NCBI GenBank assembly: GCA_043228905.1
Contig: JBHGNT010000017.1
Span: forward strand, 17,236,001-17,300,000
From: Azolla caroliniana
Lineage: Eukaryota > Plantae > Polypodiophyta
Reading direction: 5' to 3'
DNA: 64,000 nucleotides
How positions within the stretch are numbered: position 1 is the stretch's first letter; every line of letters begins with the position of its first letter. The translations under genes and the position numbers were made by a program. The notes beneath the pieces are model-generated. The model searched no databases. It was not told the DNA's origin and saw nothing but the letters and a program-made list of their open reading frames with translations. Shown here in pieces: positions 2,656 to 27,096 of this stretch.

Positions 2656-3164
2656 TGTCATGAAAACAACATTTTGGTTATCAAGAATCGAACCCACGAC
2701 TTCTTGGTCTATGTGTTGAACCCTTAACCATTGTAATAACATATATGTTGTGTGATTATAATAATTATGTTTCTAGTTATTACAAGATATTAGAATATTC
2801 TAGAACATTCTAGAACATTCTAGATTATTCTAGAACATCCTTTAATATTTCATGATTATATTTCTTATCATAAAATCTAAAATATTCTAGAACATTCTAG
2901 ATTACTCCATAAGGACCTATAAATAATTGTCTATACATTCGTTTCAACTCATTCGGTTCAGTTATCATAAAATATTAAAGGATGTTCTAGAATAATCTAG
3001 AATGTTCTAGAATGTTCTAGAATATTCTAATATCTTGTAATAACTAGAAACATAATTATTATAATCACACAACATATATGTTATTACAATGGTTAAGGGT
3101 TCAACACATAGACCAAGAAGTCGTGGGTTCGATTCTTAATAACCAAAATGTTGTCTTCATGACA
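2656..3164. mobile_element. 509-bp foldback LTR-like insertion with 201-bp terminal inverted arms
   Basis: Ends TGTCATGA...TCATGACA. TSD CCAGG at 2651-2655 and 3165-3169. Arms 2656-2856 and 2964-3164 differ at 3 positions. It interrupts the Copia A RT region. Confidence 0.95.
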
Positions 3165-6049
3165 CCAGGTGCTCCTTCCCTTTCTCCACAAATCCCTCCG
3201 ACTGCTGCATGTAGATCTCCTCTTCGAGGTCGCCGTGAAGGAATGCCGTCTTCACGTCTAGCTATTCTACCTTGAGGTCCATGCTTGCCGCCATACTCAG
3301 CACCGTCCGGATGGAGGTCATCTTTACTACCGGGGCAAATATCTCGTCGAAGTCCACACCCTTCTTCTGCTGGAACCCCTTCACCACGATCCTGGCTTTG
3401 TATCTCAGGGGGTTGACGGCATCTCCCGGTTTCAACTTGTACACCCACTTGTTTCGGAGTGCCCGCTTTCCTTTCGGCAACTCCACCAATTCGTACGTAT
3501 GGTTCACATGCAGGGAATCCATCTCATCCTACATGGCACTTAACCATTTGTGGTTGTGGGTGTCATCCTTTGCTTCTTCGAAGCTTTCCGGCTCCCCCTC
3601 ATCGGTCAGCAGAACATGCTCTGCATCCGGAAATCTCCGGGGCGCCCTTCTCTCTCTGAGAGGATATCTCCATCTTCGGGCTTCGGTAACCGGCTCCTCC
3701 ATTTTCTCTTCATCTGAATCTGATTCGGGGTCTTGGCCGGTTCCGGTTTCAGCTTCCTCTACTTCTTCTTCAGCCTGTTCGGTATCCTCACCGTAACCGG
3801 CTGGTCCCTCAAGTGCTAACTGGTCTCTTGCCGGTTGGATCTGCTCATCGTAGAGTCGATCCTTACCGGTCGACTCGGAGTTCATTATCTTCTTCTCCGA
3901 CTCCCAGTCGGCGAGCGTCTTGTCCTCCATGAAGATAATATCTCGACTCCGGAATACCTTCTTGTCGACCGGGTCCCACACTCGGTAGCCGAACTCATCG
4001 TCACCGTAACCGAGGAATATGCATGGCCGGGTCTTTGGATCTAACTATCCTCTCCGGTCCTTAGCTACATGCACGTACGCGAGACACCCGAATACCTTCA
4101 GATGCCGGTAGGATACTTCCTTACCGGTCCATACTCTATGTGGCGTGTCTCCGTCCAAGGGTACTGAGGGTGATCTATTTATCACATATGTCGCCGTCGA
4201 CAATGCCTCAGCCCAAAACTTCTTGGGTAGTTTTGCATGCGCTAGCATGCTCCGAACCCTCTCCATTATAGTCCGGTTCATCCTCTCGGCCAGTCCGTTT
4301 AGTTCCGGTGTCTTCGACACGGTAAATTCTCCTCCGGTATTCTCCTCCGTTATCTGCTCGAACAACCTTCAGCTTCCGACCGGTTTCTCTTTCCACTCTC
4401 GCGTGGAGCTCTTTGAAGACGGATAGCACCTGATCCTTCGTCTTCAACGGCGTGGCCCACAACTTCCGGCTGTGGTCATCTATGAACGTCACGAAGTACT
4501 GTGATCCTGCATGTGACTTCATGTCCACTTGACACACATCAGTATGCACCAACTCCAGTGGTGCGTTACGTCTCATCGGTGGCCTTGGTCGGAAGGAGGT
4601 CTGGTTTTGCTTATCGGCCAGACAATCAGTGCACTTCTCCAAGTGCACGTTCTTCACTGGAATGAGGTTGTCGTCTGCAAGCCTCTTCATCCCCTTCTCG
4701 CTCATATGACACAACCTCTTGTGCCACAGCTCACCGGTAGTGTCGGATGCCACGTTCACTTCTTCTTCCGGACATAACCGGGCATTCATCAGGTACAGTG
4801 TGTTGACGTTCCAGGCCCGAGCCACAATCAGGCTCCCTTTACTGAACTTCATGACACCGTTCGAGATGCTACCCGTGTAGCCTTCATCATCTAGCCGACC
4901 GACTGATATCAGGTTCAGACGAACCTCCGGAACGTGTCGGACATCCTTCAGTAGCAACTTGCATCCGGTTAGTGTTATCAACCACACGTCTCCTATGCCG
5001 ACAATTCGGCATGTTCCTTCATTCCCCATCCGGACACAGCCGTGATCACCGGCTGAGTAGGATGAGAAGCATTTCCGGTCCGGGGTAAGGTGGAACGACG
5101 CTCCGGAGTCGACCACCCAGGTCATCTCGTCGCCTGCAAGGTTTATCTCACTCTCCTCGATGATGAGCATCAACTCTTCGTCACTTGCCGCGATTGCCGT
5201 CGTCCCCTTCCGGTCCGTTCCCCTCCGGTCTTTACCGTTCCGGTCCGGTATCCGCTTCGAATCGGTACCATCGGTTTCCTTGTCCTTTCGGAAATGCCGA
5301 CAGTTCTTCTGGAAGTGTCCCGGCTTGCCGCAATAGAAGCAAGTAGGTCTCCCCCTTGACTTTGACCGTGTCCTCGACTTTTCCCGGTTCTGGGGACTAT
5401 GGTTTCTTTGTCTTCCATGTTCCGATTCGGTAAGGAGCGCTTTGGAGTCGGAGCTTGTATCTTTATCTTTCCGACGCGCCTCCTCATCTAGCAAGCTCGA
5501 CTTTACTCTTGCTAGGGATAACCGCTTTCCTTCCGGCCCGGCGTTGCCCAAAGTGACAACCAACGTCTCCCAGCTATTCGAGAGGGAACCTAGCAGGAGT
5601 AGCGGTAGTACCTCGTCGGCGAGAGGTACTTCCAATGATGTTGCCTGGTGTATCAGCCCCTGGAAGGCATTCATGTGCTCCGCCATGCTGGAGCCATCTT
5701 GGTACCGGAGTCTTACTAGCTTCCGGAATACCGAAACCTGATTAACAACATTTTTGTTTTGAAACATTATGCCGATCTTCTCCCAGAGCTCATGAGCCTT
5801 GCTCTCTTCATTGAAGTTGTTGTACATGCTCATGTCGATGAAGCACCGTATGTACGCCGTTGTCTTCATGTGCATCACCTCCCATATCGCGGCGTCGATT
5901 TTGTCCGGTCTCTTGTCCCCGAACTGAACCGGCAGCCAGAGGTCTTTAACCAGGAACATGTCCCTCATCTTCGACTTCCACACCGAATAGTTGGAGCCGG
6001 TGAGCTTGAACATGCCTCCCAACGAATCGTCCATTTTCTATGTCGTTTC

Positions 6050-6061
6050 GCTTTGATACCA
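6050..6061 (-). promoter_or_regulatory. Primer binding site (tRNA-iMet type) of Copia A
   Basis: TGGTATCAAAGC on the minus strand, 3 nt from the LTR end and just upstream of the gag ATG at 6034. Confidence 0.85.
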
Positions 6062-6064
6062 CTT

Positions 6065-6335
6065 TCCAGGAACTGCACGCTCCCTATACGCAACGCTCGG
6101 CCACAACCGAGCTTAGAATCATACACAAGAAACGGGAAATAAATGCACGACACAAAGAAGAGAAGAGTACACAGGATGTTTACGTGGAAAACCCCAAACT
6201 AGGGAAAAAACCACGGCAGCCCACATGCTGCAAACTATCAGTATGTTAGAATGTACAACAGTGAGTTCACGGAGGCAACGACCTCGTGCTCACGATCTTC
6301 GCCACAGGCGGCGGTTTCAACAGAGGCAACGACCA

Positions 6336-6372
<37 letters not shown>

Positions 6373-6487
6373 CACGGTTACGCGCTCTCTTCCTTCTTGC
6401 ACCAACAAGAATAATAAGAACACTAAAAGTTTGCCCTAAGTCATATTTATACTAATATGACTTTTCGGCTATTTACAAATATAGCCA
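6065..6487 (-). repeat. 5' LTR fragment (TATA-R-U5) of Copia A
   Basis: Homologous to 8227-8849 and 15268-15893 (GTATAAATATGACTTAGGGCAAAC, GA microsatellite, GTGGTTTTT...GGGTTTTCCACGT). Confidence 0.88.
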
Positions 6488-7259
6488 TGATGGACGAATC
6501 AGAGACAATTGATTCGAACAAGAGCTGGAATGAATCAGAGACAATCGATTCAGTTCAACAGACAGATTCGGAAGAATAGGATCAATTCAAGGCCAAGAGG
6601 ACGAGAAGGCAGCAAAAGTCGACACCAACACGAAGGAATCGGTGAACCTGCACGCGTCGAAGTCACAACAGCGAGGGAGTTGAATTGGGCCTGTTGAGCA
6701 GACAAGCCGACCAAGGAGGTCGAGGTGTGCAGAACAAGAGGGTTCACGGCAAACAGAACCGGACTGGACGAGGAGTGTGAGCAAGGCGGAGTGACGCCAG
6801 AAGGAGCTGAGCAGAAGGACCGGTTGCCACAGACGTTGACACTACGACCGGACCTCAAGTTGAGCTTGAGGGGGAGTGTTGAGCGGCAAGCTCAATTGGA
6901 GCCGGATCGGCTGGATAAGCCTGAGCCAGTGAGCAAAAGAGCCGGTGAGCTGGGGAGCCGGTTAGCCGAATCCATCAGTAACCGGAAGCCTAGTAGCAGC
7001 TAGACTACTAGGGAGTTATTACTCTCGTAGTTAGTGTCAGATGCTCGAGTGAGCATTGATGTACACCGTACTTTTGTCAGTCAGTATGGACCTATATAAA
7101 AGTGTTCGCTGAACACATATGATGTACAGAGCGTTGATATAATTTTTGAATAGAGATTCTTGTTCTCTCTCTCTCTCTCCCGCTTATTGTTAAGCTCTCC
7201 ATTAAACCTGTTCTCTGTTTTTTGTTTTTTATTGCTTACGCACGCTATTTGCTTTTACA
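6488..7259 (+). mobile_element. 3' end and LTR (6877-7259) of a Copia family-B element
   Basis: Homologous to about 12580-13393; PPT TTGAGGGGGAG followed by TGTTGAG...TTTTACA. Confidence 0.85.
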
Positions 7260-8226
7260 ATCCGGCAAAGAGACATGTCGATTACGGATTACACCACCAA
7301 AATAAAGGAGATTTGTGATGCACTCGGGTCCATCAACGTGACTGTGGACGAAGACGAGATGGTACAAATCTGCCTTGGTGGTCTAGCGCAAAGGTATGAG
7401 CCAATCCAGACAATGATATGCACCCGGGAGAAGCCACCGTCCTTCTTCGACTTACAACCAATGTTGATGGTCGAAGAAAACCACGCGAGCGGGTCGAGGA
7501 CCACTCAATCGGACAACCGAATGCTGTACACAGAGTCGGATTGGCCCCGTGGACGTAGAGGACGAGGTGGGTCGGCACGCAATGGAGACGGCTGGCAAGA
7601 GTAGGACCGAAGGCACAGAGACAGTGCCGACAGTAGTTCTGGATCCCTCCACAAGCAGGGGGAGTCAAAGCGGCACCGGAAGCCGACAAGGAAAAGCCGA
7701 CACGGAATGCTGGTATTGTGGCAAAAAGGGCCACAGGGAAAGCGAGTGTTGGAAGAAGCGTGTTGATTCGGACAAATCCGGATCTGGCAAGGCCGGTCAG
7801 GAGGATCCATAATCGGGAAGACTGGTAAAGGGCCAACCTTCGTGATAAAGCACAAGCCTAACTCGATGAAGAAGACCACTTCCAAATCAAAGGAAGTATG
7901 GTATGTTGATTCTGGAGCGTCCAACCACATGACGAGCCATGAAGAGTGGTTCTCCTTTTTGGAAAAACTGGAATAACCGGGAATCGTTGAAACCGGAGAC
8001 AACACCCCTCACCCGATTGTGCATGTCGGAGAAGTCCGTTTGAGCCATGTCAGACAGAAGGGGAAGCTGATGAATGTACTACATGTTCCGACTATGACAA
8101 AGAACCTGGTGTCGGTTGGATAAATCGTCGACTAGGGGATGCAGGTGCGGTTTACGCACCTTGGGTGCTTCATCGAGGAAGAAGGCCGGATAATTGCGCA
8201 AGGGCGTAGAGAAGGGAGGATGTTCA

Positions 8227-8849
8227 TGTTAGTAAACAGGTCCCTCCGGATGGGAAGTGAGAAGAACAGTGTTGATGAGCAAACTCGGCCGAGGCCTAAA
8301 CCGGATGTGGAGTACCCGACAACGGAAGGCCCGGTGAGAACCGGATGACGAGTGCCTGGCAAGAGTTGGATGGTGAAGGCCCGATGAGAAGTGCTCACCG
8401 GATGAAGGGACATATTCATAAATATGTTTATGAGAGTCCATCGGGGCTATATTTGTAGATAACCGAAAAGTCATATTAGTATAAATATGACTTAGGGCAA
8501 ACTTAATAGATAATGTTGATATTCTTGTTGGTGCAAGATTAGAGTGCGTAACTGTGCATAGAGGGAGAGAGAGAGGAAGAGGTCGTTGCCTTTGTTGTAA
8601 ACGCCGCCTGTGGCGAAGATAGCAAGGTCGAGGTCGTTGCCTCGGTGCTTTACTATTGTACATTGTGATATAGTGATAGTTTGCAGTCTGTGGGCTGCCG
8701 TGGTTTTTTCCCTAGTTTGGGTTTTTCCACGTTAACATCCTCTGTACTCTTCTCTTCACTGTGTCGTGCGTACCTTACCCGTTTTCTGTGTTTGATCCTA
8801 GACTCGGTTGTGGCCGAGCGTCGCGCTTAGGGAGCATGTATTCTTGTCA
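8227..8849 (+). mobile_element. Solo LTR (Copia A-type), 623 bp
   Basis: TGTTAG...TGTCA, TSD GTTCA at 8222-8226 and 8850-8854. Removing it restores the host reading RMFILNTN. Confidence 0.95.
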
Positions 8850-11589: not shown

Positions 11590-12097
11590 TGTTACCCCAT
11601 ACGAGATGTACGGAGAGTCAATGTGATGAGCGAGGGTCAAATGTTATCATGATGATTGTTGTGTGTGTGTGTAGGGGGCATAAATGTAATTGTGAGTTGA
11701 TACGTATGTGAACACATGCACACGTGTGTGCATGTGGATGGATACGAGGAGGTGTGAGTGAGTGTCCAGTATGAATGCTCTAGGGGGCTTACACCCCTTT
11801 GTATCTACCCCCTCTTGTACTATTTAACCCCTTTATGGGGAATGAATGAAACATATAATCATTTTCTCTCTCTCTCTCTCTCTCTCTCTTGTCATCTCTC
11901 TTTCTCTCTCTCTCCCCCTCAACGTTGAATCCCCCACCCCGCAATGCTTCTCAAATGCACATGATCTCTCTCGCCATCAATCTCATACTCATCATCATTT
12001 TTACCATTACATTATGTCTATCTTCATTATCAATCTACCATCATTGCTAGCCCTATTCTTATCATTATCATTAACCCTAACCCTAAAACCTACAACA
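11590..12097 (+). mobile_element. Solo LTR of an unrelated family, 508 bp
   Basis: TGTTACC...CAACA, TSD ACAAC at 11585-11589 and 12098-12102. Removing it restores IQLAKNPVFHAR. Confidence 0.92.
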
Positions 12098-13393
12098 ACA
12101 ACTTGCCAAGAACCCTGTATTCCATGCTCGAACAAAGCACATAGAAGTGCATTATGACTTTGTTCGTGAGCAAGTCCTGAGCAGTATGTTCAGACGAATC
12201 GGCAAGTTGTCGACATCTTCACCAAACCTCTCGAATTGGACAAGTTGCAACACTTCACCGAAATGCTTGGTGTTCAACATCTCGATGTGCCGCACTTGAG
12301 GGGGAGAACGGGCAAAGGCAAAGAAACCGGTGCCATAATGAGCAAAGGCAAAGAAACTGCTGACAGCACCAGACAAGGAACCGGAAAGGGAAGAACCAAC
12401 AAAGGGGGAGACAAGAGAAAAAAGGAAGCCGAGTCGATGAAGGAAGTCGGCACATCCGAACAAGTCAGAACGAGCGGCAGTGGCGGCAAAGTCAAGAAGG
12501 ACAGAGCCGACCGGAAGGAGAAGGCCAAGACCGGACATGGTTTGATGTGGTGAAGGGCCTGAAACCAGAAGACGAGTTGGAGAACACCGACTCGGACAAG
12601 AGCCGGAATGAATCGGGAGCGACTGATTTAGACAAGGACTGGAAAGAATCGGAGATAGCCGATTCTCTTCAACAGTTGGATTCGGAGGAGCCGGATCAAC
12701 TAAAGGCCAAGCGGACACAGACGCAACGGAAGTCGACGCCAACACGAAGGAACCGACAGGTCGACAAGCGTCGGAGTCGTAACAGCAAGGGAGCTGAAAT
12801 GGGCCTGGTGAGCAGACAAGCCGACCGAGGAGGTCAAGGTGCGCAGAACTAGAAGGGTCGTGGCAAACAGGACCGGACGGTACGAGGAGCGCGAGCAAGG
12901 CGGAGCAATGCCAGAAGGCTGTTGGGGACACTAACACCACAATTCGACCTCCAGTTGAGCTTGAGGGGGAGTGTTGAGTGAGCAAGCTTAATGGGATACG
13001 GATCAGCATCTGGATCGGTATCCGGAAACAACCGGCCGTATCGAGGAGACGGATCGGAGAGCCGGATTCGAGCGGGAACCGAAAGCCTAGTAGTAGCCTA
13101 GAATACTAGGTAATCATTGTCTTGTAGTTAGTGTCAGTTGCTCATATGAGCATTGAAGTACTTGTCAGTACTTCTGTCAGTCCTTTATGGACTTGTATAA
13201 ATAGTGTTGTTATAGCACATTGTATGTACAGAGTTTTAGAGTTATTTTGAATCTACGTTTACGTTCTGCTCTCTTTGTCTCTCTCGTGTATACTCTTTGT
13301 ATATTAAGCTTCTCCATTAAACCTTCATCTTATTCTCTGTTGCTATCCGGTTGAGCCGGTTCTGTCTAACGCTTCCGCACGTTAACTTTTACA

Positions 13394-14672: not shown

Positions 14673-15267
14673 GATACACCCAGTTCGGAGTCGATCGAGG
14701 AGTGGTGGAATTAAGGGCAAGGGATAGTGATTACACATTGTTGAGACCTTGATAATCCACACATAGTCGTAATGAGTTGTCCTTCTTCTTGACAAATAAG
14801 ATTGGGGCCCCAATCGATGATTTGAAGGGTTGAATGAAGACCTGAGCGAGGTTTTCATCCAGATATGTGCGAAGAGCCTCAAGTTCGGGTTCAAATATCC
14901 CATTGATGGGCCCAAATGGTGGATGCGCGCCATCTTGGAGTTCGATTGGACAATCATAGGGGCGATGTGCCAGTAACCAATCTGCATTTTGCTTTTCAAA
15001 CACATCCAAAAAGTCACGATATCTTGTGGGCAAATTGGTGACAGAAATAGAGACGTCTCGTGACACAATGGGCATTGAAGTGACCAAGCGGGAACCTGCC
15101 ACAACGGAATCAGCAGTGTGGGAGACTGAGTTGAAATTGGAAGAATGTGTAGCCAAGCTGAAGGCAACACCCACACAATTAATGTTTCCAACCAGGATAG
15201 CCCTAAAAGTGATGGGGCGGTTGCACCAATCCACTATCGGATTGTGTGTTTCCAACCAGGATAGTCC

Positions 15268-18200
15268 TGTTGGGATTACGGTCCCTCCGGATGGGATGTC
15301 CGGAGATGAATGACGGCAAGCCCGGTTGCGGTTACGGAACCGGATGATGAAGAGTACCCGGCATGAAGCCGGATGAAGAGTACCCGGATACGGATCCGGA
15401 TGATGAAGACCCCGGCTACGGAGCCGGATGACGAATGTACCCGGAGAGAGATCCGGATGCAGGGACATATTTGTGAATATGTTTGCTAAGAGCCCTTGAG
15501 GCTATATTTGTAAATATCCCGAAAGTCATATATGTATAAATATGACTTAGGGCAAACAGTTTTATGAGGTTGTTGCTTATTCTTCATGAGAAGTGAGAGC
15601 AGCCGAGAGAGAGAGAGAGAGAGAGACGAAGAGGTCGTTGCCTCTGTGTATTACCGCCGCCTGTGGCGAGGACAGTGAGCTCAAGGTTGTTGCCTTGTAG
15701 CTTCACCATTGTACATCCCTGTTCATAGTGATAGTTGGAGGTTGAGGACTCCCGTGGTTTTTTTTATTTAGGGTTTTCCACGTAAAACATCCAGTGTACC
15801 TTTCTCTCAGTTGTCTTCGTGCATATTGTATTTCCCGTTTTCTGTGAGTTGATCGATCCAGTTCCTCGGTTGTGGCCGAGCACTGGTTCAATAAAGTGGT
15901 ATCAGAGCGACGGTAACACAGAAAATGGAAGGCGGCAGCAGCGGGCAGCCGGGAATGATGGTGCTGAATGCGCAGAATTACGCCGACTGGAAGATCAAGA
16001 TGGAGGATCTTCTGATTGTTCGGGACCTGTACGAACCGATTGACAGGTCGGAAATACCGAAGGGAGTACTTGAGTCGGAGTGGAAGCTCCTGAACCGGAA
16101 AGCAGTAGCGACGATCCGGCAATATGTCGATGTAAGTGTCCTGCAACATGTGGCGAACGATACGAACGCCTATGAGATGTGGAAGAAGCTGTCAGGCCTC
16201 TATGAGAGGAAGAATGCGTTGAACCGGACCTCCCTGATGAGAAAGATAGTGAACCTCAAGTACCGGGACGGCGAGAGTATGGTGGAACACGTAAGCACGT
16301 TCATGGGATTCGTGAACCAGCTTGCGGCGATCAAGTTCCCGTTGGAGGATGCAATGCAAGCCATCATCCTGATGTGTACATTGCCGGACAGCTGGGAGAA
16401 CTTGGTGGTGACTCTCAGCACCTCCTGCACGGAAGACAACTTGTCCCTACAAACGGTAAAGACAAGTATTCTAAATGAAGAAGCGCGTCGGAGAGATAAA
16501 GAACCGGCCTCCGACTCGAAGGCGCTGCTTACCGAATCGGAACGGGGAAGACACTGGAACCGGAGTCCGCAAAGACGGGAGAAGTCGGGGACCCGGTCGC
16601 AGTCAAGAGGAAGACCCATCTGCTTCCACTGTGGGAAGCCGGGGCACTTCCGGAAGAATTGTCGGCATTACCGAAAGGACAACGGAGCCGACGACACCGA
16701 TTCGAAGAAGTCACCGGAGAGAAACGGTGCATACCGGGGAGGCACGGACCGGAGAGGTCCGGATCGGCGAGGGCAGGACCGGAAAGGAACGACGGCACTC
16801 GCGGCAAGTGAAGAAGAGATAATGCTCATTACCGAAGAGAGGGAGCTGAACCTTGCCGGCGTAGAGATGACCTGGGTGGTCGATTCCGGAGCGTCGTTCC
16901 ACCTGACCCCGGAGAAGAAATACTTCTCATCCTACACAGCCGGTGAGCACGGCTTTGTCCGGATGGGAAATGAAGGTACATGCCGAATTGCCGGTATAGG
17001 AGACGTGTGGCTGATGACATCAACCGGATGCAAGATGCTGTTGAAGGATGTGCGACACGTTCCGGAGGTCCGATTGAACCTGATCTCGGCCGGGAGGCTA
17101 GATGATGAAGGCTACACGGGTAGCATCCGGAACGGCGTAATGAAGTTCAGCAAGGGGAGCCTGATAGTGGCTCGGGCCCGGAAGGTCAACACTCTTTACC
17201 TGATGAATGCCCGGTTATGTCCGGAAGAGCTGAATGTGGCAGCCGACACTGCCGGTGAGCTGTGGCACAAAAGACTGTGCCACATGAGTGAGAAGGGGAT
17301 GAAGAGGCTTGCAGAAGACAACCTTATTCCAGTGAAGCATGTGCACCTGGAGAAGTGCACCGACTGCCTGGCCGGTAAGCAAAACCGGACCTCCTTCCAC
17401 TCAAGGCCACCGACGAGACGTAGCGCACCCTTGGAGCTGGTGCACACTGATGTGTGTCAGGTAGAAACGAAGTCACATGGCGGAGCCCAGTACTTCGTGA
17501 CATTCATTGATGATCACAGCCGGAAGCTCTGGACGGCACCGTTGAAGACAAAGGACCAAGTGTTGTCCGTCTTCAGAGAACTCCACGCGAGAGTGGAAAG
17601 AGAATCCGGCAAGAAGCTGAAAGCGATACGAGCGGATAACGGAGGGGAATACCGGGGGCAGTTCCAGGAGTACTGTCGCTCGAAGGGAATCCGGCTCGAG
17701 TTTACTGTGCCGAAGACGCCGGAACTGAACGGGCTGGCCGAGAGGATGAACCGGACCATAATGGAGAGGGTCCGGAGTATGCTGGCGCATGCGAAACTAC
17801 CCAAGGGATTTTGGGCTGAGGCAATGTCGACGGCGACGTATGTGATAAATAGATCACCCTCAGTACCTTTGGACGGAGACACGCCGCAGAAAGTGTGGAC
17901 CGGTAAGGAAGTGTCCTACCGGCATCTGAAGGTGTTCGGGTGTCTCACATACGTGCATGTGGCAAAGGACCGGAGAGGAAAGTTAGATCCAAAGACCCGG
18001 CCATGCATATTCCTTGGTTACGGCGACGACGAGTTCGGCTACCGAGTATGGGACCCGGTCGACAAGAAGATATTCAGGAGTCGCGATATCATCTTCATGG
18101 AGGACAAGACGCTCGCCGACTGGGAGTCGGAGAAGAAGATGAAGAGCTCCAAGTCGACCGGTGAGGATAAACTCTACGAGGAGCAGTCCCGACCGGCAAG

Positions 18201-20637
18201 GGACCGGTTAACACTCGAAGACCCGGCCGAAGACGGTGAAGAAACAGAACCGGCCGAAGAAGATGAAAATGATACCGGAACCGGCCCCGATCCCGAAATG
18301 GATTCGGATGAAGAAGAAGAATCGGAAGAACCGGTTACCGAAGCTCCCGAACGGAGATATCCTCTAAGAGAGAGAAGGGCCCCCCGGAGATTTCCGGAAC
18401 CAGAGCACGTGCTGCTAACCGATGAGGGGGAGCCGGAGAGCTTTGAAGAAGCAAAGCACGACACCCAGAGCCGCAGGTGGTTAAGTGCCATGCAGGAGGA
18501 GATGGATTCCCTGCATGAGAACCACACATATGAACTTGTGGAGTTGCCGAAAGGAAAGCGGGCACTTCGAAACAAGTGGGTGTTCAAGCTGAAACCGGGA
18601 GATGCCGGAAACCCCCCGAGATACAAAGCCAGGATCGTGGTGAAGGGGTTCCAGCAGAAGAAGGGCGTCGACTTCGACGAGATATTTGCCCCGGTAGTGA
18701 AGATGACCTCTATCCGGACGGTGCTGAGCATAGCGGCAAGCATGGACCTCGAGGTAGAACAGATGGACGTGAAGACGGCATTCCTTCACGGTGACCTCGA
18801 TGAAGAGATCTACATGCAGCAACCGGAAGGATTCGAGAAGAAAGGGAAGGAGCACCTGGTATGCCGGTTGAAGAAGAGCCTTTACGGATTGAAGCAGGCT
18901 CCCCGGCAATGGTACCGGAAGTTCGACTCCTTCATGACCGACGAAGGGTACCTCAAAACGCAGTCCGACCACTGCGTGTTTGTGAAGAAGTTCGAAGGAG
19001 GAGACTTTCTAATACTCCTCCTGTACGTGGACGACATGTTGATCGTCGGACGGGACCAGGTCAAGATACGGATGCTGAAGAAGGCTCTTCACCAAACCTT
19101 CTCAATGAAGGACCTGGGTCCGGCGAGGCAAATACTAGGGATGCACATCATCCGGGACCGGAAGAAGAAGCAGTTGTGGCTGTCACAGGAGAAGTACGTG
19201 ACGAAGGTGCTTCACCGGTTCAACATGTCGGAAGCAAGACCGGTCGGATCGACCCTCCCGGCAAACTGCAAGCTGTCCAGCAAGCAAAGTCCCAAGACAA
19301 AGGCTGAAAAGGAGGATATGATGAAAGTGCCGTATGCCTCAGCCGTCGGGAGCTTGATGTACGCCATGGTGTGTACGAGACCGGACATAGGATATGCAGT
19401 CGGAGTGGTGAGCCGGTACATGAGCAATCCTGGCAAAGAGCATTGGAACGCGGTCAAGTGGACACTCCGATACCTGAAGGGCACAGCAAACGTGTGCCTT
19501 CGATTCGGCTCCGGTAAGCCCCAACTCGACGGCTTCACCGATTCGGATATGTCGGCTGATGCAGATACCAGCCGGTCCACATCAGGGTATGTGATGACCT
19601 ATGCAGGGGGAGCCGTTTCGTGGCAGTCGAGGCTGCAGAAGACGGTTGCGTTGTCAACCACGGAGGCGGAGTACATGGCAGCTGTTGAAGCCGGCAAGGA
19701 AATAATATGGATGAAGGACTTCATTAGAGAGCTCGGTATCCAACAGGAGGAGTACCGACTCTACTGCGACAGTCAGAGTGCCATCCACCTTGCGAAGAAC
19801 GCGGCCTACCATTCCCGGACGAAACACATCCAGCGGAGATACCACTGGATCCGGGAGAGGATAGAAGACGAGGAGTTCGTGCTGACGAAGATCCACACTG
19901 ACGAGAACGGGTCGGATATGCTGACCAAGGTGCTCACACCCGACAAGCTGGAAGCATGCCGGAAGAGGATCGGATTGGAGAGACATCCCATGCCGAAGTG
20001 AAGGGGGAGTTTGTTGGGATTACGGTCCCTCCGGATGGGATGTCCGGAGATGAATGACGGCAAGCCCGGTTGCGGTTACGGAACCGGATGATGAAGAGTA
20101 CCCGGCATGAAGCCGGATGAAGAGTACCCGGATACGGATCCGGATGATGAAGACCCCGGCTACGGAGCCGGATGACGAATGTACCCGGAGAGAGATCCGG
20201 ATGCAGGGACATATTTGTGAATATGTTTGCTAAGAGCCCTTGAGGCTATATTTGTAAATATCCCGAAAGTCATATATGTATAAATATGACTTAGGGCAAA
20301 CAGTTTTATGAGGTTGTTGCTTATTCTTCATGAGAAGTGAGAGCAACCGAGAGAGAGAGAGAGAGAGAGACGAAGAGGTCGTTGCCTCTGTGTATTACCG
20401 CCGCCTATGGCGAGGACAGTGAGCTCAAGGTTGTTGCCTTGTAGCTTCACCATTGTACATCCCTGTTCATAGTGATAGTTGGAGGTTGAGGACTCCCGTG
20501 GTTTTTTTTATTTAGGGTTTTCCACGTAAAACATCCAGTGTACCTTTCTCTCAGTTGTCTTCGTGCATATTGTATTTCCCGTTTTCTGTGAGTTGATCGA
20601 TCCAGTTCCTCGGTTGTGGCCGAGCACTGGTTCAATA
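15268..20637 (+). mobile_element. Intact, very recent Ty1/Copia LTR retrotransposon
   Basis: LTRs 15268-15893 and 20012-20637 (626 bp each, 2 G/A differences seen). TSD AGTCC at 15263-15267 and 20638-20642. PBS TGGTATCAGAGC at 15897-15908, PPT at about 20000-20011, uninterrupted ORF. Confidence 0.98.
15925..20001 (+). CDS. Copia Gag-Pol polyprotein (1358 aa), Tnt1-like domain set
   Basis: CFHCGKPGHFRKNC zinc knuckle, VVDSGASFH protease, HKRLCH...CTDC / DDHSR / DNGGE / AERMNR integrase, LLYVDDML RT, FTDSD / AEY / CDSQSA RNase H. Confidence 0.98.
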   Translation: MEGGSSGQPGMMVLNAQNYADWKIKMEDLLIVRDLYEPIDRSEIPKGVLESEWKLLNRKAVATIRQYVDVSVLQHVANDTNAYEMWKKLSGLYERKNALNRTSLMRKIVNLKYRDGESMVEHVSTFMGFVNQLAAIKFPLEDAMQAIILMCTLPDSWENLVVTLSTSCTEDNLSLQTVKTSILNEEARRRDKEPASDSKALLTESERGRHWNRSPQRREKSGTRSQSRGRPICFHCGKPGHFRKNCRHYRKDNGADDTDSKKSPERNGAYRGGTDRRGPDRRGQDRKGTTALAASEEEIMLITEERELNLAGVEMTWVVDSGASFHLTPEKKYFSSYTAGEHGFVRMGNEGTCRIAGIGDVWLMTSTGCKMLLKDVRHVPEVRLNLISAGRLDDEGYTGSIRNGVMKFSKGSLIVARARKVNTLYLMNARLCPEELNVAADTAGELWHKRLCHMSEKGMKRLAEDNLIPVKHVHLEKCTDCLAGKQNRTSFHSRPPTRRSAPLELVHTDVCQVETKSHGGAQYFVTFIDDHSRKLWTAPLKTKDQVLSVFRELHARVERESGKKLKAIRADNGGEYRGQFQEYCRSKGIRLEFTVPKTPELNGLAERMNRTIMERVRSMLAHAKLPKGFWAEAMSTATYVINRSPSVPLDGDTPQKVWTGKEVSYRHLKVFGCLTYVHVAKDRRGKLDPKTRPCIFLGYGDDEFGYRVWDPVDKKIFRSRDIIFMEDKTLADWESEKKMKSSKSTGEDKLYEEQSRPARDRLTLEDPAEDGEETEPAEEDENDTGTGPDPEMDSDEEEESEEPVTEAPERRYPLRERRAPRRFPEPEHVLLTDEGEPESFEEAKHDTQSRRWLSAMQEEMDSLHENHTYELVELPKGKRALRNKWVFKLKPGDAGNPPRYKARIVVKGFQQKKGVDFDEIFAPVVKMTSIRTVLSIAASMDLEVEQMDVKTAFLHGDLDEEIYMQQPEGFEKKGKEHLVCRLKKSLYGLKQAPRQWYRKFDSFMTDEGYLKTQSDHCVFVKKFEGGDFLILLLYVDDMLIVGRDQVKIRMLKKALHQTFSMKDLGPARQILGMHIIRDRKKKQLWLSQEKYVTKVLHRFNMSEARPVGSTLPANCKLSSKQSPKTKAEKEDMMKVPYASAVGSLMYAMVCTRPDIGYAVGVVSRYMSNPGKEHWNAVKWTLRYLKGTANVCLRFGSGKPQLDGFTDSDMSADADTSRSTSGYVMTYAGGAVSWQSRLQKTVALSTTEAEYMAAVEAGKEIIWMKDFIRELGIQQEEYRLYCDSQSAIHLAKNAAYHSRTKHIQRRYHWIRERIEDEEFVLTKIHTDENGSDMLTKVLTPDKLEACRKRIGLERHPMPK

Positions 20638-21627
20638 AGTCCTAAAACAATCGAATGTCAAGGGGTTGCAATGAGGTAGAACATTAATACCTCCTAGTGG
20701 GGCCCAACTTGAAGTACCAACGGGATAGTGGCTTCAATAACTACCCCCAAAGAGAGAACTTGTCCATCGATAGCTTCAACGAATATGGGTTGTGTTGTGC
20801 CGATACTATGTGCTCGGACGAACGAGATATCGATAAAACAGGTAGATGCATTGGAATTGAGCAAGGCATGGGATTGTATTGAAGTAGACCCAAAACAAAG
20901 ACTTACTTGCAATGTAAAACCTCATGATGGCGTAACTGAATTGTAGGAGCACAGACAAGTTGGGTAACAAAAAGTGTCCAGCAGCATGGTTCCTACTACA
21001 GTCGGACTTTGTCATTTTCCTGTTGTCAAGAAAGCTCCACAAGATGTGCACTGTCACGGATACACCAAGCGCGAACTAGGACGGAGCACAGATAATGGGG
21101 CTACGAACAACGGATGAACTTGGAGCTAGATGTCATGAGGCTAGGAACTCTAGATGTTATGAGCGACATGAGGGCATGAAGATAGAAATAAAGATCAAGG
21201 AGACAAAGATGAGGCGAAACAAGAATACTAGATTGATGTGTCAATGATTGGTGTTGAATCCCTTGAAAGGGACCAAGGAGGTTACAAGTATTTATACTGT
21301 GAGTCAAAGTACATGCATTAGAATATTCTGTAGAGTATTCAGGAGAATATTCTAGAACCCTCTAGAACCTTCTAGTTCTAGAACTTTCTAAATACTCCTA
21401 GAACTTGAAATAGATAATTTACTAATAATCTACTAAAATATATATAACACCATATATCTAGATATGTTGGTTAGAACACAACACTTGACTATATACAAGA
21501 GGTCAAGAGTTCAAATATTGATATGACTGTTGTCATGTTTGTGACATTATCCTCCCCTTTACGACCGCCTTTTTGAAAGCGTGGTGTAGGGGTGAGCTGA
21601 AAGAGAAAACCAAAGTACGTTGAGGAG

Positions 21628-22262
21628 TGAGTGACCATGAGCAGTCCTCACCAGAAATAGGAGCACAGGTGAATGCGAGTGACCATGTGTGGTCCTCATA
21701 AGAGATTGGAACACTAATGGGCGTGAGCGACCATGTACGGTCCACACCAGAGACTGGAACACCAACGTGAGCGTGAGCAACCATGTTCGATCCTCACCGG
21801 AGACTTGAACACCAATGTGAGCGTGAGTGACCATGTCTGGTCATCATCGGAGACTGGAACACCAACGGACGTGAACGACCATGTACAGTCCTCACCGGAG
21901 ACTAGAACACCAACGGACGTGAGCGACCATGTACGGTCCTCACTGGAGATTGGAACACCAACGAACATGAGCGACCATGAGTGGTCCTCACTAGAGACAT
22001 GAACACCAACGGACGTGAGCGACTATGTGTGGTCCTCACCGGGAATTGGAACACCAACGAGTGTGAGCGACCATGTACAGTCCTCAATAGAGACACAAAC
22101 ACCAATGGGCGTGAGAGACCATGTACGGTCCTCACCTGAGACACGAACACCAACAGACGTGAGCGACCATGTGCAGTCCTCACCGGAGACACGAACACCA
22201 ATGGGCATGAGTGACCATGTACGGTCCTCATCGAAGACACGAACACCAACGGATGTGAGCGG
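21628..22262. repeat. 48-bp tandem array (about 13 copies) inside element C
   Basis: Unit GTGAGCGACCATGTACGGTCCTCACCGGAGACTGGAACACCAACGGAC; one more partial unit resumes at 24343 after a nested insertion. Confidence 0.92.
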
Positions 22263-24342
22263 TGTCGTGAAAATCCGTCACTATGTGCGGATCGTGAGGC
22301 GGAACCGCCGGGGTCCTGGACCGGAAGGATTCGAAGTTTGCAAGATAGATTGAAAGAGAGAGAGATTGAGATAAGATAGAACGCTTGACTTTAGATCGAG
22401 AGAGATTGAAATGGAGAGAGAGATTAAGATTGAACCCTTGACTTTAGATTTGAGGAACAAGATATATCATCAATTAGATAACGAATTGTCTTCTTATTAA
22501 AATCTTGATTAATACATAGCCCGTTTTTCTTCTCCATCCACTCTTTTATAGATGCCCCCATGCATATGATGCATGTGAGGGTGCAAGACATGCATGTAAT
22601 GCATAAAATGCATGAGATGCATGTTTGCCATTTGGCGCTCATGCAGTACATGTGTTGCATGATAACCATGTCACTCATTCAAGCTCTCATGCATGAGAAT
22701 TTACATGTGAAAGTATAATGATAAAAATATAACTTAAAGAAATGACTTGGCTTTTTTTCGTTTCACACCGAAAATCTTCAAGACACCGTTGTCGCAGTAT
22801 TCCGCGGGCACGTGTAGGATCTTAGGTGGGACTGCGGGGGTCTTGGACTAGGGAGACGGATGGTGAAGTCCTTAAGCTTTGTGGGCTTCGGTCCGGAATC
22901 GGCTTCCGGCTCCAACGAATGTAGGGTTTCACAAAAAGACGGTTCACCGCGAATATGGACCCGACTCAAATATGTTACAAGGAAGATAGATATACGCTAA
23001 CATGAATATATATTACAAGAGCTTTATAACAAGACGGTTACATGCCCCGAATCCGGTGGCTATTACATATCAATAGGCTAATACAACAAGTTAAGAATGG
23101 GAACCAACGAAGGCAAGTCAAGTGGGCCGTCGGAACCGCGACATCCACCATTGGTCACACCCCAAATACAGTGGAGTGTTCCTGTGCCACTTGGCCCTCC
23201 CTTCTCGAATCGGCCGCCACACGAAACGCTCTCCATCGAGGAGAGGAAGCCGAATCACCAAGTGCTGCCACCGGAATGCCTAAAGTCGTCGTTGTAGGAA
23301 CCCCCAAACCTAACCAAACTCTCACACGAAGAAGAGAGAGTAATACCCAAAACCCAAAACCGCATAAACTCTTACAAGAAGAATGACCTAAACGGAATAC
23401 TAACGTCCACTCAAAAGAATGGACCAAACCCACGAGACAATGAAGGAGAAGACTCAAAATGAAACCCTAAACGAAATAGGGAGAAAGACCAAAGTAGAAA
23501 CCTTAAGAATAAGGTGAAGAGGAAGAACACTACCAAACCCTAGACCTAACTGTTATACCCTTCCTAACTCAAAATGGGCAACCCTTTTACAAGGGACACT
23601 CTCTTCATTTTATACAATAAGGAGAGGGATGCGTAACAATGTGGGATAAATCCCTTATCACATGGGGTTCTTTGTCCCAATTTAACTCCTATTCGGCACC
23701 ATAAAGGCACCCCTATTATTCACACGTTTTTACAAGGGTAAGTGCACATGATACACTCCACCGATTCCTCCAATATCTCCCGATTTCTCATTGTAGCTCA
23801 GAATCATCATGACACCGTGCGTCGCGATCAACCTATCCGACTGACCTGATTGATTCGTCTGTTCGTTCCCGACCGGTTCGATTCACATCTAATCCCATCC
23901 GGGTCCAATTCCGGTTTCGTCGCCATCCGGTTTGGGTTCTCCAAGACAATTCTGTACAACTTAGCCACATCCATTCGTCCAAGTTATCCAACCCAACCTT
24001 TTTGTGCTCTTAACACATAGACAAAATATAGAGAGATATGGCTCTACTTATATACTCGTGAATCCTGATGGTGTCCTATCTATGTGGGATATCTCACAGT
24101 TTTGTTTTCCTCTTCTTCTTCTCAAACTTCACACTCACATAACTTGACACTAAGTTGTCTATTTCACATGTAGTAAAATGCATTCAAAAGCTCTTGAAGA
24201 CATCCATCTTTTCATACCAAGATATTAAACTAATATAAAATAATATCTTCACTATTATTGTTTCATATTGTGTGTGAAGAACCACACTCGATTTTGTACG
24301 TTCCATGCAATTTTCACACCGTTGCCGAAAATCTTCACGACA
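22263..24342 (-). mobile_element. Composite of D-type Gypsy LTR sequences inserted in the 48-bp array
   Basis: TGTCGTGAA...TTCACGACA ends, flanks GCGG/ACGG. Contains an LTR-like unit at 22263-22785 and a nested solo LTR. Shares a GGCGG(G/A)ACC...GGGG.C(C/T)TG.ACC motif with the LTR at 27398. Confidence 0.7.
22790..23814 (-). mobile_element. Solo LTR (D-related) with 4-bp TSD
   Basis: TGTCGCAG...CATGACA flanked by CCGT at 22786-22789 and 23815-23818. Confidence 0.7.
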
Positions 24343-24389
24343 ACGGTCCTGACCGGGAACTGGAACACTTGACGATGATGAAGGCTAGG

Positions 24390-25053
24390 CAAAGTAGTAT
24401 TGATGATGACAAGAAGAGGGTTGAAGATGAATCAATGAAGGCAATGATGTTGACGAAGTGACTTTGGAAGCAACGACTTTGACTATGGTAATGATGGAAG
24501 TGGAGAAAGAGATGAAGAGGATAAGAAACATAGAGATCAAGACATTGAGGTTCTAAAGAAACACAAAGACACAGATACAAACTATGATAGAAAACACAAA
24601 GACATGGATGAAGGTGATAGGAAACGTAGGGAAAGGGATGAAGATAATAAGAAACACAGATATAGAGATGAAAACGGTAGGAAACACAAGGAGAAGGATG
24701 ACAATGACAAAAAATACAAAGATAGGGATGTGGAAGATAATAAGAAACGTAGAGATAGAGATGATGATGAGAAGAAACTAGGAGATAGAGATGATGATGA
24801 GAAGAAACTAGGAGATAGAGATGTGAAGGATGAGAAGAATCTAAAAGACAAAGAAGGTGATGAAAAGAAACTACGAGATAGAGATGTGAAGGATGAGAAG
24901 AATCTAAAAGACAAAGAAGGTGATAAGAAGAAACTACGAGATAGAAATGGCGAGGAAGATAGAAAACGAAGAGATGTTGATGATGGTGACTTTAGAACCA
25001 ATGGCGGTGATGATGGTAACTCTAGAAGCAAGGGTGATGATGAAGACAGGTAA
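24390..25053 (+). repeat. Purine-rich low-complexity tandem region in the interior of element C
   Basis: Repeats of about 30 bp, (G/C)GAGATAGAGATG...GATGAGAAGAA, giving a D/K/R/E-rich 149-aa ORF antisense to the element. Confidence 0.75.
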
Positions 25054-25868
25054 TGATTCCAGTTGGAAGGGGTTCAAACTGTCACGAACACACCAAGTGT
25101 GAACTAGGATGGAGCATAGATGAACTTGGAGCTAGATGTGACGAGGCTAGGAACTCTAGATGTTGTGAGTGACATGAGGGCATGAAGATAGAAATAAACA
25201 TCAAGGAGACAAAAATGAGGCGAAACGAGAATACTAGATTGATGTGTCAATGACTAGTGTTGAATCCCTTGAAAGGGACCAAGGAGGTTACAAGTATTTA
25301 TACTGTGAGTCGAAGTACATGCATTAGAATGTTTTGTAGAATATTCGGGAAGAACCCTCTAGAACCTTCTAGTTCTAGAACTTTCTAAAAACTCCTAGAA
25401 CTTGAAATAGATAATCTACTAATAGTCTACTAGAATATATTTAACAACATATATTAGGATCTATTGGTTAGAACACACCACTTGACTATATACAAGAGGT
25501 CAAGAGCTCAAATCTTGACATGACAACAGTCATGTTCGTGACATGCACGGTGGCAACATGGTAGATGACATGGTCAAGGGTACCACAATAGAGGCAAAGG
25601 CCATTGTCACGTCTATGTTGTCGTTGCACATCAATTCAAGGTTGGGACCGAGCATGGTCGACCTCCATCTAGGTATGAGTATCATTGGAGGATGGCAACC
25701 TTGGCTTGGTTGGCGAAATTGATACATGTATGGCATTGCGGGATGAAGACTAAAATCCTTGAGTCCCACGTTCCTCCTGACGAAGCTCAAAAAGACGATG
25801 ATCACATTGAACAACTTGGGACATTACTTGAGGCAATGATGTGGGCTTCGGAAAGTTTTGACATCGTT

Positions 25869-26462
25869 TCAGAGGCCTCGACGAAAATGGTCACATAAGG
25901 CTTGGTCATCCCAGCTAACATCGCACGTGATTTGATGAAACTTTGAAGCATAGACGGAGGCTGAACGACAACCTTGTTGTAAGGAATAGAGCTTCGTGAG
26001 TGTTGTTCGTCGCCAGTCAGTCTCTCTAAACGTGGCTTCAACCTTTGCGAGGAAGGCAGGAAAGTTGTCTAAGAGTGGGGATGAGGCCTCGACCAATGGT
26101 GCAAACCACGCTTGCGCCAGTCCGGAGAGAAGGGTGCCAATGAGGCCGACTTGAGAAAAATTGCTAGCATAACATTGGGGTTGTAAACGAATGATAAGCC
26201 AAATTTGATTGATGAAGCCACGAAGATGTGCCCTCGAGCCGTTGAATTTGTTGGGTAGGCTAATGCTAGGTTCGAGGACATATGGATAAGAAGAGGAAGG
26301 GGTCGGGCTAGGTGTTGACGAGGGGTGTGGCTCAATGAGTGGGGGGTTGTTGAATGTGTCATTTTGAAGCTCTCGTGATGATTCACAAAGGATTTCAATT
26401 TCTAGTTGAAGTTGTTGGAAGGCTGCCATTACTTGGTTTAAGTTGTTGATAGAGTTGGACAT
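25869..26462 (-). pseudogene. Gypsy gag (Ty3 capsid-like) of element E
   Basis: LPNKFNGSRAHLRGFINQI...LLSGLAQAWF...LQQGCRSASVYASKF...WDDQALCDHFRRGL, then a premature stop. The ATG is 28 nt from the LTR end. Confidence 0.88.
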
Positions 26463-26490
26463 GGTAGCAAGAAGACGAAGGTGAACAAAT

Positions 26491-27096
26491 TGTCACAAAC
26501 GAGTAGACAAGGCTACATACACACACACACAAAGAGAGAGAGAGAGAGCATGGATGTAGCTCAGTTGGTAAAGTTGCCCAATGGAGACCAGGTGGTCATG
26601 GGTTCAACCCCTACATTCCACAATGGCATCTAGTGAATTAAGAGATATATAAGAAGTATATAACAGAGAGGTGAGGAAGTTGGGTTTCGAACCCACAACG
26701 CAATGCTTGTAATGCTAACAACTTACCACTAGGGTAAGGTAATTACAATAAATAAAAATAAAATAAAATAAAATAAAATAAAAAAGAAGAAGAGAGAGAG
26801 CATAGACAAGCGAACAAGAACTAAATTTATGTTTCCGTAATTAGTGTTGTTCACCTTGATTGTAATCAAGGTGCACCCGAGTATTTATACAAGGTGGAGG
26901 TATGCATGTAACCTAGGAATATTCTAGAGGATGCATGCAAGCTAGGAAACTTCTAGTGATTAACCTACAATGTAATAATTGAATCTTATACAACAATGCA
27001 CAGATGGATGTAGCTCAATTGGTAAGGTTGCTCAACAAGACCATGAGGTTATGGGTTCAACCCCCTACATTCCATCAGGGCATCATGGTTATGACA
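26491..27096 (-). repeat. 5' LTR of Gypsy E containing three tRNA-like modules
   Basis: TGTCAT...GTGACA on minus, TATAAATA at 26882-26889. A/B-box modules at 26551-26620 (+), about 26675-26740 (-) and 27005-27074 (+). Confidence 0.85.
26551..26790 (+). mobile_element. Possible tRNA-derived SINE inside the E LTR
   Basis: TAGCTCAGTTGG...GGTTCAACCC head, (AAAAT)n tail at about 26748-26785, flanked by the direct repeat AGAGAGAGAGCAT. Confidence 0.5.

Follow-up and report, generated by a model that had tools for sequence, protein, structure and literature searches.

Outward-facing tRNA-like A/B-box modules at the U3 tip of Tcn1-like chromovirus LTRs as candidate TFIIIC sites

The closest known counterpart of the LTR segment described here is found in the Helenus/TRIMp3 elements (Kojima, 2024, PMC10886601), which share with it a tRNA-like stretch carrying boxes A and B. 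In the sections of that paper on which we draw, Helenus elements are non-coding TRIMs of 311-1263 bp with a tRNA PBS, Pol III is proposed to transcribe the element, the orientation of the segment is not stated, and it is argued that autonomous partners should not share a Pol III LTR. Sections of other sources describe the Tcn1 clade, reported among plants from mosses and club-mosses (Novikova, 2010, PMC2864245; Neumann, 2019, PMC6317226), the pairing of initiator tRNA, through its T and D arms, with the U3 portion of the Ty3 primer site (PMC5371799), yeast barriers formed by TFIIIB/TFIIIC and animal insulators formed by tRNA genes (PMC9540200), and an upstream TATA plus CAA as the signature of plant type 2 Pol III promoters (PMC3082873).

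The window analysed here is a stretch of 64,000 nucleotides from Azolla caroliniana, in which a sequence-only reading had pointed out a tRNA-like segment directed outward near the U3 terminus of three LTR families, here called E, C and the foldback. LTR ends were scored with A-box and B-box matrices built from 55 unrelated prokaryotic tRNA genes, against a null of 150 dinucleotide shuffles per end. The antisense box pair was significant in all five named LTR ends (each p<=0.013), 15-47 nt inside the U3 terminus and located where claimed, and in none of the six other LTR ends of the window; the sense strand of the module-bearing ends was likewise not significant. With the same matrices the two real tRNA genes of the window score 30.8 and 26.5. 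From the minus-strand gag and a PPT at 21547-21560 it follows that E and C have their U3 on the right-hand side, and that the boxes therefore face outward. No module has the cloverleaf and RF00005 score above 29 bits of a functional tRNA gene, and ARAGORN called only the window's two real tRNA genes, lowered thresholds giving numerous chance hits. The covariance check suggested with the original observation was silent on the modules in a window-wide RF00005 scan and on the foldback in a separate one; its only return was local, from the E-like head of a SINE-like insert (14.1 bits, E 7.6).

Element E is a Tcn1-like chromovirus on the minus strand, whose 5' LTR (26491-27096, about 365 bp without its insert) has a TATA at 26882-26889 and can be aligned to the LTRs of the related loci L005, L008 and L026. 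Its module occupies 27004-27074 on the plus strand, antisense to E, with the A box at 27011-27022 and the B box at 27054-27064 (score 29.2, p=0.007). The gag (PF03732; 25544-26465, minus strand) is interrupted by stops and a frameshift, and the protease region (20637-21046, minus strand) is frameshifted and resumes at 15267-14672, with the start of RT, past a Copia insertion; the matches of these two pieces, at 45-70%, are pols that bear a chromodomain, and E thus has a gag of Ty3/gypsy type and a Tf1-like pol. An RT-RNase H frame at 3-1193 was rejected as belonging to E, being 95% identical to P0001, for which the E protease and RT start give just 55-59%. The U5 of E holds a SINE-like insert (26550-26790, plus strand) with a tRNA-like head, an A-rich tail and a flanking duplication of 11-13 nt that sits in a GA repeat; its empty site can be seen in the LTRs of L008 and L026. 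The insert head is 83% identical to the E module, spacer and 3' extension included, and a second, facing A/B-box module lies within the insert (26683-26736, minus strand; score 23.1). A high summed contig depth suggests a high copy number, no second full copy having been read.

Element C (21052-25543, minus strand; about 2.4 kb after removing its nested insert) is an LTR element nested in E, with the TSD TGCAC and no detected pol. Its 3' LTR (21052-21546, minus strand) carries a plus-strand module at 21452-21518 (A box 21459-21470, AGGTC, B box 21508-21518; score 12.4, p=0.007), and its 5' LTR (25080-25543, minus strand) another at 25449-25515 (A box 25456-25467, AGGTC, B box 25505-25515; score 10.1, p=0.013). 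By itself the C module would be a weak case; what speaks for it is the exact AGGTC together with C's relatives. The foldback is a solo LTR at 2656-3164, without assigned strand and with the TSD CCAGG, which runs through U3, TATA and the start of R into an inverted copy of the U3 tip with 3 differences over 201 nt. The right-arm module lies at 3075-3136 on the plus strand (A box 3082-3092, B box 3126-3136; score 20.7, p=0.007), and the left-arm module at 2684-2745 on the minus strand is its mirror copy (boxes 2684-2738; score 20.7). Between module and TATA are six alternating GAA/TTC pentamers (2790-2845, plus strand), an array that we take to be heat-shock-element-like. Treating the foldback as a family of its own was rejected: contig depth drops at the junction and the loose ends run on into normal R region. 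It appears to be a single rearranged solo LTR, of an arrangement that is likely rare, as judged from records thinned by a filter. In one putative RNA run, coverage at the foldback was confined to the flanking Copia, which says nothing on expression. The count of three families has to be qualified, the foldback being apparently a rearranged solo LTR and C lacking a detectable pol.

The module-bearing elements are likely Tf1/Tcn1-like chromoviruses that prime themselves rather than being tRNA-primed, the Tcn1-like label having been assigned by features, as the RT tree contained no named reference elements. Just after the 5' LTR, the priming site corresponds to the start of the element's transcript and not to a tRNA, which supports the earlier impression of elements dispensing with tRNA priming. 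In E it lies at 26478-26490 (minus strand), 11/12 complementary to LTR positions 26846-26857, 33 nt past the TATA start, and in C at 25067-25079, 10/11 complementary to about 25260-25270. Such sites, with a complement of 10-12 nt 32-34 nt from the TATA start, were found in E, C, L003, L004, L014 and L018, and were not found in 17 other loci, several of them incomplete. A chromodomain is present at the integrase C-terminus in LTR-matched relatives of E (L005, L008, L026), of C (L001, L007) and of the foldback (L010, L018); E's own integrase falls outside the window.

Among related metagenome loci having a readable LTR start, the antisense pair was significant in 13 of 25; on the sense strand none of 30 loci gave a significant pair. 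All 13 loci have their U3 boxes directed outward, as do the five window ends, confirming that position and orientation are kept despite strong divergence, and the module-bearing loci encode pol. A third clade was devoid of the module in seven of seven loci, as was L004, and L003 and L030 had a B-like match only. Automatic LTR finding failed for the most distant loci (L031-L080), which were scanned over at most 1.5 kb on both strands and gave a match in 2 of 50, neither in clear U3 context. In viral contigs the RT query returned nothing and the integrase alignment one distant locus.

Conservation was compared in 13 families with integrases 50-79% identical. An unanchored alignment of 14 U3 tips confined invariant columns to the variable-loop/B-box block and the terminus. 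Within clade II (100% support), the B core has an identity of 1.0 and the variable loop one of 0.83, against which the anticodon-arm spacer reaches 0.41, the upstream flank 0.40 and the downstream flank 0.33; the corresponding values between clades are 0.97, 0.80, 0.32, 0.34 and 0.31. Inside clades the B core is 93-100% identical, with spacer and flanks saturated at background identity. The motif AGGTC, which is not part of the scoring matrix, stands beside the B box in 12 of 13 families (0.17 expected), and in 11 of the 13 the A and B boxes lie 31-33 nt apart, as in tRNA genes. This persistence of B-box core, AGGTC and spacing bears out the description of a conserved tRNA-derived LTR module. 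The A box is poorly kept in its 5' half and worn in C-type families, and position 61 is C in just 9 of the 13. The claim that boxes are better kept than neighbouring U3 holds across families; within one family, that of the foldback, the module is better kept than upstream U3, but the boxes are no better kept than the spacer (variable sites 3/22 versus 3/33). In the same family the B-box CpG cytosine varies at 3-12% of contig depth and a CpG cytosine 8 nt upstream at 48-75%.

A conserved RNA structure was rejected, since pairing is near the null in the anticodon stem (2.9 of 5; null 3.0, real tRNA 4.9), T stem (3.1; null 2.8, real tRNA 5.0) and acceptor stem (4.1 of 7; null 3.7, real tRNA 7.0), and folding z-scores are mostly about 0. 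Taking the AGGTC block for a WRKY W-box was rejected as well, position 49 being A in just 8 of 13 families. Upstream of the module the AT content is 0.81, against 0.56 window-wide, and the plant upstream signature (PMC3082873) is not significantly enriched (CAA 5/13 versus 2.9 expected; TATA-like 10/13 versus 6.5). Taken together, the module reads as a selected promoter-type DNA site, most probably for TFIIIC.

Considering that promoter boxes are kept while the tRNA fold is lost, the boxes likely bind Pol III machinery. Chromoviruses generally carry a chromodomain integrase that directs insertion to silenced chromatin. Our preferred reading, to which we give slightly less than an even chance, is that a conserved A/B-box site at the outer U3 tip of two Tcn1-like clades would bind TFIIIC and serve as barrier and opener for the Pol II promoter of the LTR. 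TFIIIC would occupy the B box and, given the outward orientation of the unit, TFIIIB would come to lie inside the LTR, on the AT-rich stretch about 100-150 nt in, beside the enhancer array and TATA. At the 5' LTR a Pol III-type complex would then stand between flanking chromatin and the promoter of the genomic RNA as a barrier against silencing, which would suit elements expected to insert in silenced chromatin; any outward transcript would be a by-product, and where the A box is worn, as in the C type, the site may be bound but not transcribed. Several observations weigh against this reading: the module is dispensable, as its loss in a whole clade and in L004 indicates; the strongly kept AGGTC falls outside the textbook B box; in a 3' LTR the module is turned toward the inside of the element itself, a position with no obvious use for a barrier; and box conservation in the foldback's family, the A-box 5' half and the upstream signature do not favour it. 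Plant tRNA genes acting as barriers are not among the cases described in the sections of PMC9540200 used here.

Transcription itself might be the selected function, an antisense Pol III promoter yielding a meaningful RNA that at the 3' LTR would span the U3 tip, PPT and end of pol, likely feeding self-limiting small RNA or blocking plus-strand priming. Both boxes are complete in E and clade II and score near those of real tRNA genes, C, L002 and L010 have T4-T6 about 10-25 nt after the LTR end, giving RNAs of 79-118 nt, and the existence of a SINE-like element with an E-type head suggests that such heads are transcribed. A conserved terminator was nevertheless rejected: the first T4 predicts RNAs of 59 to >400 nt, 3 of 11 loci lacking one over the first 400 nt, and this scatter argues for no conserved product. 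With near-zero z-scores and the worn C-type A boxes added, we consider this explanation unlikely. Rather improbable is a role in the genomic RNA, whose U3 complements tRNA D and T arms, so that a host tRNA might anneal as in Ty3 and aid dimerisation or strand transfer. Place and polarity do agree with the U3 portion of Ty3's primer site (PMC5371799), the kept blocks each correspond to an unbroken stretch of tRNA (about positions 16-21 and 44-58), and on the antisense strand most T-stem pairs are G-U, hence mismatched on the genomic strand. The elements nevertheless have no tRNA-complementary PBS, six having self-priming sites instead, and differences among families at positions 49, 50, 52, 57 and 59 would interrupt any extended pairing with a single tRNA. 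Position 54 is an invariant T in the modules but A in eukaryotic initiator tRNA.

SINE heads captured once or repeatedly into U3 and now decaying would account for the 83% identity between the E module and the SINE-like head in the same LTR and for the loss of the module in several families, and a SINE insertion has been proposed as the source of tRNA-like LTR segments (Kojima, 2024, PMC10886601). Neutral decay would not, however, spare the boxes amid saturated spacer and flanks, and if 13 families had captured heads repeatedly in the same place and direction, that too would call for selection or targeting; across families such passengers appear already largely refuted, and we regard them as improbable. 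The sequence-only reading had named independent SINE insertions with their own TSDs as an alternative: no U3 module has a TSD of its own, but the E module shares descent with a TSD-flanked SINE-like insert, so that this alternative is set aside only in part. That the boxes are landing pads or decoys, attracting Pol III-gene-targeting elements or the element's own integration complex, seems very improbable, as no insertion lies immediately upstream of the module in any of the five window LTR ends and E's one insert is in U5, collapsed metagenome contigs being unable to show such insertions. A wider scenario, which we find doubtful, combines a chromovirus lineage having its own TFIIIC barrier at the U3 edge with outward Pol III read-through that gave rise to an abundant SINE, reversing the SINE-to-LTR route proposed for Cassandra/Helenus.

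Pol III boxes in LTRs are known for tiny, non-autonomous, self-transcribing elements, whereas here outward boxes persist in coding elements with a Pol II promoter and must serve something else. If they are barriers, they would explain how an element inserting in silenced chromatin stays expressible, provide the first plant test case for TFIIIC barriers, and mean that retrotransposons supply many of the dispersed TFIIIC sites of such genomes. Sister families with and without the module constitute a natural experiment, and the E-type head ties LTRs directly to a SINE-like family. Searches of the openly accessible literature found no account of an outward-facing module in coding chromovirus LTRs. 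A tRNA-gene-like sequence has reportedly been described at the HIV-1 U3-R, which the literature search did not confirm.

The modules have the A and B boxes at gene-like spacing of a type 2 Pol III promoter (the A box worn in the C type). Their elements are neither short non-coding TRIMs nor provided with a tRNA PBS or a promoter placed to transcribe them, as Helenus/TRIMp3 are (PMC10886601); they are self-primed gag-pol-chromodomain elements in which the module faces away, beside a Pol II TATA. The earlier statement that no description was known must accordingly be narrowed, as that paper, in the sections used, describes the broader kind, albeit for a different element class. Cassandra TRIMs, as described in the sections used of PMC10886601 and PMC12786077, are 5S-derived, self-transcribing and non-autonomous, unlike the module here. 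The likeness to the Tcn1 clade (PMC2864245, PMC6317226) extends to a Tf1/Sushi-like pol, a C-terminal chromodomain, TG...CA LTRs, a 5-bp TSD, predicted self-priming and no tRNA PBS, and a tRNA-like LTR segment is not mentioned in the portions of those accounts considered. In Ty3 (PMC5371799), too, the genomic RNA has at its 3' end U3 sequence complementing the T and D arms of a tRNA, but there one primer tRNA pairs through both the 5' PBS and U3, whereas here there is no tRNA PBS and promoter-type positions and gene-like spacing are kept. The yeast and animal tRNA-gene/TFIIIC barriers (PMC9540200) resemble the module as B-box DNA bordering an active domain; they are host loci, whereas the candidate barrier suggested here by sequence is carried by a retrotransposon.

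Considering that the LTRs of E (a Tcn1-like chromovirus), C and a foldback element had been read as carrying tRNA-like A and B boxes that point outward at the U3 tip, we took the opening 140 nt of every LTR and compared its box score with those of 150 dinucleotide shuffles, allowing A-B spacings of 24-62 and using matrices derived from prokaryotic tRNA genes (55 of a set of 60). Scores for the antisense box pair were 29.2 for E, 20.7 for each foldback arm, and 12.4 and 10.1 for the two LTRs of C (each p≤0.013), bearing out that reading; under the same scoring the sense strand of these LTR ends gave no significant pair, nor did any of six other LTR ends in the window. As positive controls, the two real tRNA genes, tRNA-Gly(CCC) (45087-45157, minus) and tRNA-Val(AAC) (59494-59567, plus), scored 30.8 and 26.5. 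When the whole window was scanned, 17 sites passed the filter, where shuffled windows gave 3-7. Seven of them scored above 20: the two tRNA genes, E, each foldback arm and two sites within an insert in E. The modules themselves are not tRNA genes by tRNA-gene and RF00005 scans of the window. Apart from these elements, a Ser/Pro-rich open frame whose start at 38474 is signal-peptide-like has a lone AGGTC-like plus B-box match (38191-38210, minus) some 260 nt upstream.

The region consists of nested plant retrotransposons. The 5' LTR of E (26491-27096, minus) adjoins its gag (26465-25544, minus; PF03732), and frameshifted protease and RT pieces follow at 21046-20637 and 15267-14672 (minus). Nested within E is C (21052-25543, TSD TGCAC, PPT at 21547-21560), where a search for pol or gag gave no match; its interior contains tandem repeats of 48 bp as well as a charged-repeat open frame (21575-22260 and 24487-24984), the latter having no Pfam match. 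A Copia element (15267-20638) with an intact 1359-aa polyprotein frame inserted recently, since its LTRs are 99.7% identical. An RT-RNase H open frame at 3-1193 (minus) carries on the RT of E nearly in register but was rejected as part of it, being 95% identical to a related pol sequence (P0001) against 55-59% for the pieces of E; it represents a further Tcn1-like family (P0001/L002 type). The foldback (2656-3164, TSD CCAGG) is located within a Copia RT, and its two arms are identical but for 3 of 201 positions. Its left part comprises U3 and the TATA box as far as the beginning of R; contigs from the runs lose depth at the junction, and their loose ends run on into an R region of the usual kind. 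Most likely the foldback is a single solo LTR in which an inverted copy of U3 has taken the place of U5, presumably by template switching between terminal inverted repeats or by aberrant cDNA integration.

Given that pol ends at the PPT in these elements, relatives were sought with an alignment of twelve integrase-chromodomain C-termini, a query that reaches the U3 tips without presupposing the module. The loci comprised the best 80 of at least 576 confirmed metagenome matches, whose contigs are collapsed assemblies of repeats, and 13 from two other collections. The LTR start was readable in 25 of the best 30 loci (no start was seen in L006, L024 and L028, and L020 and L025 were of insufficient length), and a significant antisense pair was present in 13 of these, L002 reaching only p=0.046, and not significant in the other 12. 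On the integrase tree the module is confined to two clades with about 45-61% integrase identity between them: clade I, with the relatives of E and C (6/9 loci), and clade II, with those of the foldback (7/7); a third clade has it in none of seven. Within clade I, L003 and L030 show a B-like site only and L004 nothing. The weakly supported branching order of the three clades (55-64) is compatible, on these sequences, both with a single gain followed by losses and with two separate gains. In L030 (629-652) a perfect 8-bp hairpin takes in the LTR terminus and has the B-like site as its loop. In L001, L007, L002 and C of the window, the A region resembles the E type minus about 6 nt, which places an upstream TGG at positions 8-10; this deletion, with TGG in register, is possibly compensatory.

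Conservation was assessed over 13 families, after dropping the near-duplicates L005, L026 and L019 and the second LTR of C. When these families and L005 were aligned without anchoring, invariant columns occurred only in the variable-loop/B-box block and at the terminus. In an alignment anchored on the boxes, which makes box identity partly circular, identity in clade II was highest in the B core (1.0), followed by the variable loop (0.83) and the A box (0.63), with lower values in the anticodon-arm spacer (0.41) and in the upstream (0.40) and downstream (0.33) flanks. Clade I and cross-clade pairs gave the same pattern. Two features are not imposed by the procedure: AGGTC at tRNA positions 44-48 in 12/13 families (≤1 mismatch; 0.17 expected) and an A-B spacing of 31-33 nt in 11/13. 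Thus the view that the boxes are better kept than neighbouring U3 stands across families. Within the foldback's family it stands for the module as a whole, with 6 variable sites per 55 nt against 14 per 46 nt upstream in contigs of three DNA runs (Fisher p=0.023), but not for boxes against spacer (3/22 and 3/33 variable), a weak test because only contigs at 80% identity enter. The module is a real, conserved feature whose function we infer, and its boxes are very probably under selection.

The RNA-level features of a tRNA gene are largely missing. With the boxes fixed, stem pairing is near the null and far below that of real tRNAs, the D stem alone being modestly higher (2.9 vs 2.2; real 3.7); folding z-scores are mostly around 0, with L017 as an exception, and the predicted RNA extends from 59 to more than 400 nt before the first T4 run. 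Plant tRNA genes are described in PMC3082873 as having an upstream TATA and CAA signature, for which the modules show no significant enrichment. Because stems, folding, terminator position and this signature are not kept, what selection keeps appears to be a promoter-type site in the DNA rather than an RNA product, and a functional antisense RNA from the module is unlikely. A Ty3-like annealing of tRNA to U3 (PMC5371799) would give the boxes another role, and is quite unlikely. The bases that follow the 5' LTR in E and C complement a stretch located 33 nt past the TATA-box start. L003, L004, L014 and L018 share this geometry; among the 23 sequences examined, the remaining 17, of which several are truncated, showed no such site. 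By sequence, this site is of the Tf1 self-priming type, which PMC6317226 predicts for most Tcn1 elements; since it matches the element's own sequence, it supports the earlier proposal that tRNA priming is not used.

The question whether the module is a passenger SINE relic is bound up with a SINE-like insert in the U5 of E (26550-26790; 240 bp), which has a tRNA-like head, an A-rich tail and a second A/B module (26683-26736, minus) facing the head in an unusual convergent arrangement. It is flanked by an 11-13 nt duplication lying within a GA repeat and is absent from the L008 and L026 LTRs. Its summed contig depth, which is not a count, exceeded that of the LTR bin next to it about 6-fold in run X1, and about 2-6-fold over four runs, hinting at a high copy number. 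Identity of the head with E-clade modules is 73-83%, and with others it does not exceed 58%; the match spans the spacer and the 3' extension, which shows shared descent: either an older module was renewed in the E clade from the SINE, or the SINE was founded by outward transcription from an E-type LTR. The sequence-only reading had named independent SINE insertions with their own TSDs as the contrary case; no U3 module has such a TSD, and the kinship with the insert head is what remains of it. A passenger relic is quite unlikely, and a landing pad most improbable.

We tentatively favor a TFIIIC site that may serve as barrier and opener. The outward-facing module would load TFIIIB onto an AT-rich stretch beside an enhancer array, so that in a 5' LTR the complex would separate the Pol II promoter from flanking chromatin. 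The AT content upstream of the module is 0.81, compared with 0.56 for the window. Between module and TATA, 3-6 alternating GAA/TTC pentamers, which we take to be heat-shock-element-like, occur in 7 of 23 LTRs examined (window 2790-2900 and 21340-21400; L001, L005, L017, L018, L022), all module-bearing, and in none of the module-less LTRs among the 23. PMC9540200 cites barrier activity for TFIIIB/TFIIIC in yeast and for tRNA genes in animals, and the passages concerned include no plant case.

Two sense-orientation A/B modules (34.6 and 18.5) were observed in the U3 of a distant chromovirus LTR, presumably of seed-plant type (L081:4834-4893 and 5003-5060), and U3 segments with Pol III boxes may thus be more widespread in plant chromoviruses. 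Box pairs of tRNA-like type also lie near other chromovirus ends (L061:3035-3096, L085:3939-4009), one antisense before the PPT and one sense in the LTR. No prior description of the outward U3 arrangement was found in the literature searched, most subscription journals being outside its scope. The closest known system is Helenus/TRIMp3 (PMC10886601), a source that describes "not a few" Repbase LTRs as having tRNA-like parts and does not expect Pol III LTRs to be shared by autonomous elements. Compared with the defining features given there, the present elements are coding or long, lack a tRNA PBS and carry their boxes facing outward.
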